Shown here one piece after another: positions 21,831 through 23,192 of a DNA stretch of 64,000 nucleotides. Source of the stretch: Alphaproteobacteria bacterium (lineage in GTDB: Bacteria; Pseudomonadota; Alphaproteobacteria; MPNO01); NCBI GenBank assembly GCA_965205995.1, contig OZ242200.1:19233-83232 (forward strand). Reading direction: 5' to 3'. Both the position numbers and the translations under genes were made by a program. The notes under the pieces are model-generated. The model saw nothing but the letters and a program-made list of their open reading frames with translations. It ran no database searches and was not told the origin of the DNA. How positions within the stretch are numbered: position 1 is the first letter of the stretch; the number at the start of each line of letters is the position of its first letter.

Positions 21831-23192
21831 ATGCGTCGACATGGCCGGAGGCTTCTCATCCTGCTTCCCCTCGCCTTGGGGGCGCTGGCCGTGGCGCTCG
21901 CGCTCGGCAGCCGCGAGGGACCCCGGCGCGTCGTGCCCGAGGAGCGGGTGACCGCGGTTCGTATCGTGACGGCGCCGGCCGTGGATGTGATGCCGCGGGC
22001 GCTCGGCTACGGGAGCGTGAAGCCAGCAAGGGTTTGGCAGGCCGTGGCCGAGGTGAGCGGGACCGTTACCTTTCGTCACCCGGAACTCGAGAAGGGCGCC
22101 ATTCTCGCGTCCGGCACGGAACTGCTGCGCATCGATCCCACGGACTATCGTCTGGCGGTTGCCCAGATCGAGGCCAACATCCGCGCGGTGGAGGCCCAGC
22201 TCGCGGTGCTGGACGTGCGTTCCGTCAACACCGGGCGTTTGCTCGCGATAGAAGAGTGAAGCTGGGACCTCGGCCGCAGGGAACTCGACCGCAAGCGGCA
22301 GCTCTTGCGCAAGAGCACCATCTCGGAGGCCGCGGTGGATCGGGAAGAGCGGTCGCTCCTCGCCGGAGAGCAAGCGGTACAGAACCTGCGCAATGCGATG
22401 AAACTGTTGCCCGCCGAACGCTCGGTGCTGGAAGCGACGCGCGGCCAGCTTGAGGCTCAGCTGGAGGCGGCGCGGCGAAACCTGAGCCGTACCAGGATCG
22501 CCGCTCCCTTCAACAGCCGCATCGCAGCGGCCAATGTCGAACAAGCGCAGTTCGCTACCCAGGGACAGGTCCTGGTGGTCGCAGACAGCCTCGACGTGGC
22601 GGAGGTCACCGCCCAGATCCCGGTCGGCAGCATGCTCAAGCTTTTCCCACCCGGTATCGAATTCCCGGGCGACGTGCACGCGATCATGCCGCGGCTTCGC
22701 GAGGCGGCGGAGCTCAAGGCCGTCGTCCGCCTCCGCACCGGCGGCGTCGACACCGAGTGGACCGCGCGGTTCTCGAGAATCAGCGATACCGTGGACCCGC
22801 GCACGCGCACCATGGGCGTTACCGTCGCGGTCGACGACCCGTATGGACAGGCGGAGTCGGGCAGGCGACCGCCTTTGGTGAAGAACATGTATGTCGAGGT
22901 GGAGGTCCGCGGACGGCCACGCCCCGCGGCGGTGGTCATCCCGCGGGCCGCACTCCACGGCACCCGGGTGCGCACCGTCGGCTCCGACAACCGGCTGAAC
23001 ATTCGCGAGATCGGGGTGGACTTCGTGCAGACCGATTTCGCGGTCGTGGGCTCGGGCCTTGCGGCCGGCGAGCGGGTGGTCGTCTCCGACCTGCCGTTTG
23101 CCGTCGAAGGCATGCGGTTGGCGCCGGTCGAGGACAAGGCTGCGCTGGAGGCTCTTGTCTCCCAGGCTCTCGGCGCCACCCCGGTGCAATGA
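21831..23192 (+). pseudogene. RND efflux periplasmic adaptor (MFP/HlyD family) interrupted by in-frame TGA at 22257..22259
   Basis: ORFs 21819..22259 and 22305..23192 are in the same frame (22305-21819=486); the reading frame stays open and MFP-like through the stop (…RLLAIEE*SWDLGRRELDRKRQLLRKSTISEAAVDREERSLLAGEQAV…); N-terminal TM anchor, coiled-coil hairpin, beta-barrel and MP domains all present. Confidence 0.6.

Follow-up and report, generated by a model that had tools for sequence, protein, structure and literature searches.

An RND efflux adaptor gene with an in-frame stop codon

We analyzed a 64-kb stretch of contig OZ242200.1, assigned to Alphaproteobacteria and referred to here as the window, in which a two-gene operon encodes a periplasmic adaptor of the membrane fusion protein (MFP) family and a permease of the resistance-nodulation-division (RND) efflux type (Table 1). 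Read in a single frame on the forward strand, the adaptor gene comprises 453 codons with one internal stop, a TGA at codon 143, ahead of the terminal TGA at 23190-23192. The open reading frame (ORF) list holds the gene as two entries, 21819-22259 with a GTG start and 22305-23192 with a TTG start, and these have a common frame (offset 486 nt, or 162 x 3). The original prediction, made from the letters and the ORF list without database searches, had claimed a single in-frame TGA in an RND adaptor gene, two ORFs sharing a frame, and a full-length MFP of about 450 amino acids (aa) on translation through the stop, and all three claims were borne out. With the stop replaced by X, the joined adaptor scored 115 bits against NCBIfam TIGR01730 RND_mfp (cutoff 94.9) and 47.5 bits against Pfam HlyD_3 (cutoff 22.2), and it was colinear over its entire length with full-length homologs, which numbered more than 100 and measured 451-458 aa. 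Composition in the adaptor frame was of the coding type on either side of the stop, with GC content of 0.82 and 0.83 at third codon positions (GC3) and 0.40 and 0.45 at second positions (GC2). Chance adjacency of two ORFs is ruled out by the family match, the colinear homologs, and the coding composition across the stop. An uninterrupted reading frame is needed for a functional MFP member, and the window copy, with TGA at codon 143, does not have one; it belongs to the RND adaptor family by descent but is a pseudogene allele. The remainder encoded by codons 144-453 has neither an export signal nor an anchor of its own.

The permease downstream is intact, as originally predicted, with a near-complete ACR_tran match over its 1044 aa, and its ATG at 23200 lies 8 nt past the last base of the adaptor stop, leaving a spacer of 7 nt. 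This arrangement, adaptor followed by RND permease on the same strand, was also found in all related loci examined. No paralog of the adaptor was found within the 64-kb window, and a promoter and terminator scan of the operon returned nothing beyond the shuffle expectation on the + strand.

Table 1. Features of the operon and its surroundings in window coordinates, followed by lesions of the adaptor gene in related contigs, placed by codon
Feature	Position	Strand	Evidence or remark
RND efflux periplasmic adaptor (MFP) gene, pseudogene allele	21831..23192	+	Translation, TIGR01730, HlyD_3, colinear homologs
In-frame TGA at codon 143, from CGA (Arg) via C-to-T at 22257	22257..22259	+	CGA in L001 and L103; R143 in at least 90% of homologs
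Predicted truncated product, 142 aa: transmembrane (TM) helix, N-terminal beta strands, first 39 residues of hairpin helix 1	21831..22256	+	P0121 and variants; structure model
In-frame adaptor remainder, codons 144-453	22260..23189	+	Rest of hairpin, second halves of lipoyl and beta-barrel domains, membrane-proximal (MP) domain
RND permease, 1044 aa, intact	23200..26334	+	Pfam ACR_tran 1-1020 of 1021, E = 5.9e-159
mfp-rnd cassette including 83 nt upstream	21748..26343	+	blastn, 92% nucleotide identity to L002/L003 (5454-10051)
Molybdenum (Mo)-hydroxylase	18550-20892	-	
Isochorismatase	20970-21680	-	
Tripartite ATP-independent periplasmic (TRAP) transporter DctQ and DctM	26535-28488	+	
Aldehyde:ferredoxin oxidoreductase	28676-30397	-	AFOR_N and AFOR_C
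AMP-binding ligase	30489-32078	-	
rpoA-rplQ	about 33.2-34.7 kb	+	
Same-frame ORF junction, Rieske oxygenase/cupin	6041		Boundary of separate genes
Same-frame ORF junction, rpoA/rplQ	34267		Boundary of separate genes
Same-frame ORF junction, PDZ protease/RarA-type ATPase	36257		Boundary of separate genes
Same-frame ORF junction, Mo-hydroxylase/hydrolase	49432		Boundary of separate genes
L002/L003, TGG to TAG	codon 145		Two codons past the window's stop
L098, TAG	codon 142		
L100, TAG	codon 131		Permease also cut by an insertion sequence (IS)
L105, TAA	codon 123		
L102, IS insertion	near codon 212		36-nt inverted repeats
L101, multi-lesion decay	lesions include codons 75 and 310		

Intact and stopped alleles at codon 143

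Arginine occupies aligned position 143 in at least 90% of the homologs. Two contigs of the same species carry CGA at the site, L001 (ERZ6103982; 99.53% nucleotide identity to the window, 33 mismatches in 6981 nt, no indels) and L103 (ERZ6103912; 99.74% identity, 26 mismatches in 9919 nt, no indels), so that the check for a sense codon in close relatives, proposed with the original prediction, returned one. Inside the adaptor gene L103 and the window differ at only 3 nt, and the L103 product, P0148, equals the window protein in amino acids with R143 as the sole exception. By sequence comparison, the ancestral codon 143 is CGA (Arg) and the window TGA is a single C-to-T transition.

The exact 142-aa product (P0121) was called on 4 contigs and its variants P0137 and P0139 on 3 more, giving 7 contigs with the TGA allele, and matching C-terminal fragments (P0141, P0146, P0147, and P0150, 285-aa downstream ORFs) were likewise found on 7 contigs. 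Over 6429 sites, two of the TGA contigs, L084 (ERZ25071132) and L085 (ERZ26694166), show 13 and 8 differences from the window, respectively, and they also differ from each other; the TGA therefore sits on several haplotypes. The same 90% cluster includes intact alleles of 453 aa on about 22 contigs, among them contigs of 1.3-2.95 Mb.

The original prediction had also offered a sequencing error, and an error of sequencing or assembly, in which position 22257 would really be a C in an intact gene, would be compatible with the fact that a single-base substitution alone divides the window from intact P0148 at the protein level. Some related long-read contigs are indeed clearly erroneous, with a 2-nt indel between L002 and L003, and coverage of 6x in L099 and 1.05x in L106. 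However, the same TGA occurs on at least 7 contigs with non-identical haplotypes (the window, L084, L085, and those with the P0137 and P0139 variants), which makes random error unlikely. Alignment of the window to 2 short-read contigs over 7-10 kb is free of indels, no other gene is broken within the 64-kb window, and Mb-scale contigs carry intact alleles that have CGA in an identical local sequence, which argues against a systematic error specific to this context. We consider an error at this base very unlikely.

At 81 adaptor columns with no variation among 45 intact homologs, we identified no substitutions in the window, L084, L085, or L003, hence no decay signal of relaxed constraint in these 4 copies, which fits a recent event. 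The higher substitution counts of L098 and L100 at these columns are not comparable, since both lie beyond the divergence range of the reference set.

Other variation was seen in the same gene. Of the 33 positions at which the window differs from L001, 12 lie in a 141-nt stretch at 22534-22674 (codons 235-282), and 7 of these are non-synonymous; the stretch looks like a short recombination tract, and its variants recur among cluster members in differing combinations. The otherwise intact allele of another strain, P0149 (488 aa, on a 2.08-Mb contig), has 35 aa of its N-terminal beta region (KPARVWQ...ASGTEL) duplicated in tandem.

Structure of the adaptor and predicted consequence for the pump

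An AlphaFold model was built on P0001, an intact allele 98% identical to the window protein, with a predicted local distance difference test (pLDDT) score of 85.8. The model has a TM helix at residues 3-26, beta strands at 41-101, and two hairpin helices at 104-160 and 166-219, followed by beta-rich domains, and the best Foldseek matches in the PDB were chains of AcrA, MexA, TMexC1, and MacA (E = 1e-23 to 1e-18). Model and matches together confirmed the domain layout read from the sequence at the outset (membrane anchor, coiled-coil hairpin, lipoyl, beta-barrel, and MP domains). The window adaptor resembles AcrA, MexA, TMexC, and MacA in its four-part fold, as modeled, in scoring above the TIGR01730 cutoff, and in the position of its gene directly upstream of an AcrB-type permease. 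It differs in being only about 20% identical to them, in its anchor, an N-terminal TM helix rather than a lipobox cysteine, in having no outer-membrane factor gene adjacent to the cassette, and in its premature stop. Its hairpin is long, with helices of 57 and 54 residues, and is closer to that of MacA than to that of AcrA.

Residue 143 lies two thirds along helix 104-160, in a block with pLDDT of 90-98, and the model places no domain boundary there. A natural domain boundary at the site, which had been named as a possible refutation, was searched for in the ortholog alignment, and none was found: not one of 80 species-representative loci is broken. We accordingly rejected a naturally split, two-piece adaptor, since none of the 80 loci is split, position 143 is mid-helix, and the downstream piece has no signal peptide.

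Translation of the window allele would end after residue 142. In the predicted fragment, the membrane anchor would remain, along with the beta strands of the N-terminal region and the first two thirds of hairpin helix 1; the tip of the hairpin, helix 2, and the C-terminal half of each of the lipoyl, beta-barrel, and membrane-proximal domains would be missing. A protein of this form could not bridge the permease to an outer-membrane channel, and the pump is therefore predicted to be non-functional. Judging from the sequence and the model, the TGA allele would almost certainly disable the pump. Because the permease starts only 8 nt after the normal stop of the adaptor, termination about 930 nt upstream may also reduce expression of the permease, by uncoupling translation of the two genes and possibly by Rho polarity.

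Decoding of the TGA

Low-level UGA readthrough is known in bacteria, and the UGA could in principle be read as selenocysteine, tryptophan, or some other amino acid at a rate sufficient for the pump to work, perhaps at a lowered level. The otherwise pristine gene, with 0 substitutions at the 81 invariant columns, the intact permease, and the persistence of the TGA allele on several haplotypes are all compatible with such recoding. We searched for the signals that it would leave and found no support for it. A segment of 86 nt that spans the UGA and the sequence after it (22245-22330) has a folding energy of -22 kcal/mol, weaker than that of shuffled sequences (mean -28.3; z = +2.1), and a search of 21500-23400 against Rfam gave no match at E up to 1. 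Homologs carry Arg at position 143, with no Cys among the sequences shown, a sense codon occupies the site in close relatives, and the stopped relatives carry TAG or TAA at other codons, so that a conserved recoding site is absent. TGA terminates the adaptor itself, the permease (where the Pfam match runs to the end of the model), and most neighboring coding-type ORFs, and no further in-frame TGA occurs inside any gene of the 64-kb window. Functional recoding is, in our assessment, very improbable, in agreement with the original prediction, which had rated it much less likely than the alternatives and had seen no hairpin resembling a selenocysteine insertion sequence (SECIS); the folding against shuffles, the empty Rfam search, and the normal use of TGA by neighboring genes uphold both statements.

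Two specific forms were rejected. A selenoprotein was discarded as no SECIS-like fold was found, Rfam was empty, and homologs have Arg rather than Cys. An alternative code with TGA as a sense codon was discarded because TGA is the usual terminator and no other in-gene TGA occurs in the window. The in-frame stops flagged by a GC3/GC2 scan elsewhere in the window all proved to be boundaries of separate genes (Table 1), and a search for tRNA genes in the 64-kb window gave none.

Parallel losses of the adaptor in related contigs

Disrupted copies of the adaptor gene were identified in several related contigs, with lesions that differ from that of the window (Table 1). Split homologs prone to artefact were left uncounted, namely L104 (a scaffold gap of 10 N), L106 (1.05x coverage), and L099 (6x coverage, several frameshifts). 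In L002/L003, codon 155 (about position 6001 of L003), ten codons after the TAG, has changed from AAG to ATG, which gene callers use as the start of a 299-aa ORF (P0101), and these contigs also carry F241S at a nearly invariant position. The IS of L102 (5643-7753) splits an adaptor of 72% identity; its 36-nt terminal inverted repeats are 86% complementary, and its 578-aa ORF has weak similarity to DDE transposases. In L101 (1-12237), the adaptor is in three pieces and the permease is cut to 304 aa, within an island dense with integrases and IS240, IS66, IS110, and Y2 transposases.

All 5 clean single nonsense events, which belong to independent lineages (codons 123, 131, 142, 143, and 145), fall inside helix 104-160, a segment that offers only 17% of the one-step nonsense paths and 23% of the transition-reachable ones. 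For the unbiased pair, the window and L002/L003, the chance of two stops lying at most two codons apart is 0.02-0.06, and the proximity is not explained by a sequence hotspot, as the DNA of L098 at this site shares no motif with that of the window. These observations would be expected if truncation or polar shut-off were selected, with stops in helix 1 favored since they silence the operon or leave a useful N-terminal fragment. Against this, ascertainment was biased, with two of the cases found by querying with the 142-aa fragment, in a search that appears to return only targets of similar length; lesions also lie elsewhere, at codons 75 and 310 (L101), at about codon 212 (L102), and presumably in several C-terminal fragments; coiled coils are rich in stop-adjacent codons; and the clustering test was post hoc. 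The clustering of stops in helix 1 is only suggestive because the cases beyond the window and L002/L003 came from fragment-based searches. We regard selected truncation as unlikely; it adds to, rather than conflicts with, a recent nonsense mutation as the explanation of the window allele. An even more specific proposal, that helix 1 is a preferred nonsense target reflecting a selected early polar stop that silences both genes and, being reversible between C and T, acts as a crude on/off switch, is doubtful; if true, the switch would act, within a host-associated community, on a pump whose activity is costly or harmful. A methylation-driven deamination hotspot for the stops at 143 and 145 was not supported, with the mutated cytosines sharing no context and the L098 DNA being unrelated.

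Truncating adaptor alleles are also known from mtrC of Neisseria gonorrhoeae and N. meningitidis, where they recur independently at a frequency of a few percent with the permease gene intact, the main lesion being a 2-bp deletion by slippage in a GC hexarepeat, and where phenotype and niche association are experimental (PMC7431566). The likeness lies in the repeated natural loss of an RND adaptor with the permease left intact. In contrast to mtrC, the window and its relatives have point nonsense mutations at sites without a repeat, and their loss of function is predicted here from sequence and a model.

Horizontal sharing, habitat, and genomic neighborhood

The cassette and the 83 nt upstream of it match L002/L003 at 92% nucleotide identity, whereas the flanks of L002/L003 are unrelated to those of the window and have a GC content of 62-64% against 66-70%, that is, 5-6% lower. 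A cassette of this identity between unrelated flanks of lower GC indicates recent horizontal transfer. L003 and the TGA-bearing L084 come from one metagenome assembly, ERZ25071132. The closest species-representative genomes were uncultured Gammaproteobacteria (77% protein identity), followed by metagenome-assembled genomes (MAGs) of Binatia, Rhodospirillales, and Thermodesulfobacteriota (60-72%). A degenerate 26-mer around the site, searched in Joint Genome Institute (JGI) metagenomes, returned 12 chance matches and 0 adaptor genes. At least one source dataset, the APA_bin series, is from the sponge Aplysina aerophoba (PMC11706023), and we infer a sponge origin for the window itself.

The genes surrounding the operon are listed in Table 1. 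Just downstream of DctQ/DctM, the aldehyde:ferredoxin oxidoreductase gene adjoins the AMP-binding ligase gene, and no DctP gene was seen between them. Two adjoining genes of EamA-family transporters occupy window positions 12832-16002 (-), and an EamA gene also lies beside the cassette in L002/L003. The gene at 16375-17562 (+) encodes a protein of 396 aa in which Pfam recognizes six Sel1 repeats (E = 7e-63); eukaryote-like repeat proteins of the Sel1 type are often reported from host-associated symbionts.

Interpretation of the stopped allele

The TGA is, with good confidence, a real and evolutionarily recent nonsense mutation in the adaptor of a two-gene RND operon, a minority allele segregating in a natural population beside intact alleles. 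This was the first option of the original prediction, a recent nonsense mutation that inactivates the pump, and it is supported by CGA in contigs of the same species, by the near-invariant Arg, and by P0148. Several points weigh on the other side. The loss of function is itself predicted, from the reading frame and a structure model. The TGA contigs bear long-read-style names, while the CGA copies L001 and L103 are SPAdes-style contigs, and a context-specific systematic error is conceivable, though disfavored because intact alleles are also found on Mb-scale contigs. An undecayed gene and an intact permease would be equally expected if low-level readthrough had kept the operon useful.

The window adaptor is an ordinary pseudogene polymorphism. 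Like ordinary nonsense pseudogenes of host-associated and uncultured bacteria, it has a single transition to a stop, an intact allele nearby, and no further decay; the only feature that it adds to these is that several lineages have lost the same horizontally shared cassette in parallel. The stopped allele fits a wider pattern, the repeated independent loss of a horizontally shared cassette in related uncultured bacteria. It is only beyond the window that the allele is seen to segregate, the cassette to be horizontally shared, and relatives to hold independent knock-outs of the same gene.

For annotation, 21831-23192 is one disrupted gene rather than two hypothetical ORFs, and the downstream permease is probably orphaned. 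The cassette is common to distant lineages (60-77% protein identity) and has recently moved between co-resident organisms (92% at the nucleotide level). The wider pattern of loss is of mild interest for microbial ecology, with the loss of mtrC in Neisseria as a comparable case, and repeated loss by differing mutations suggests that the benefit of the cassette is conditional in these, probably sponge-associated, communities.
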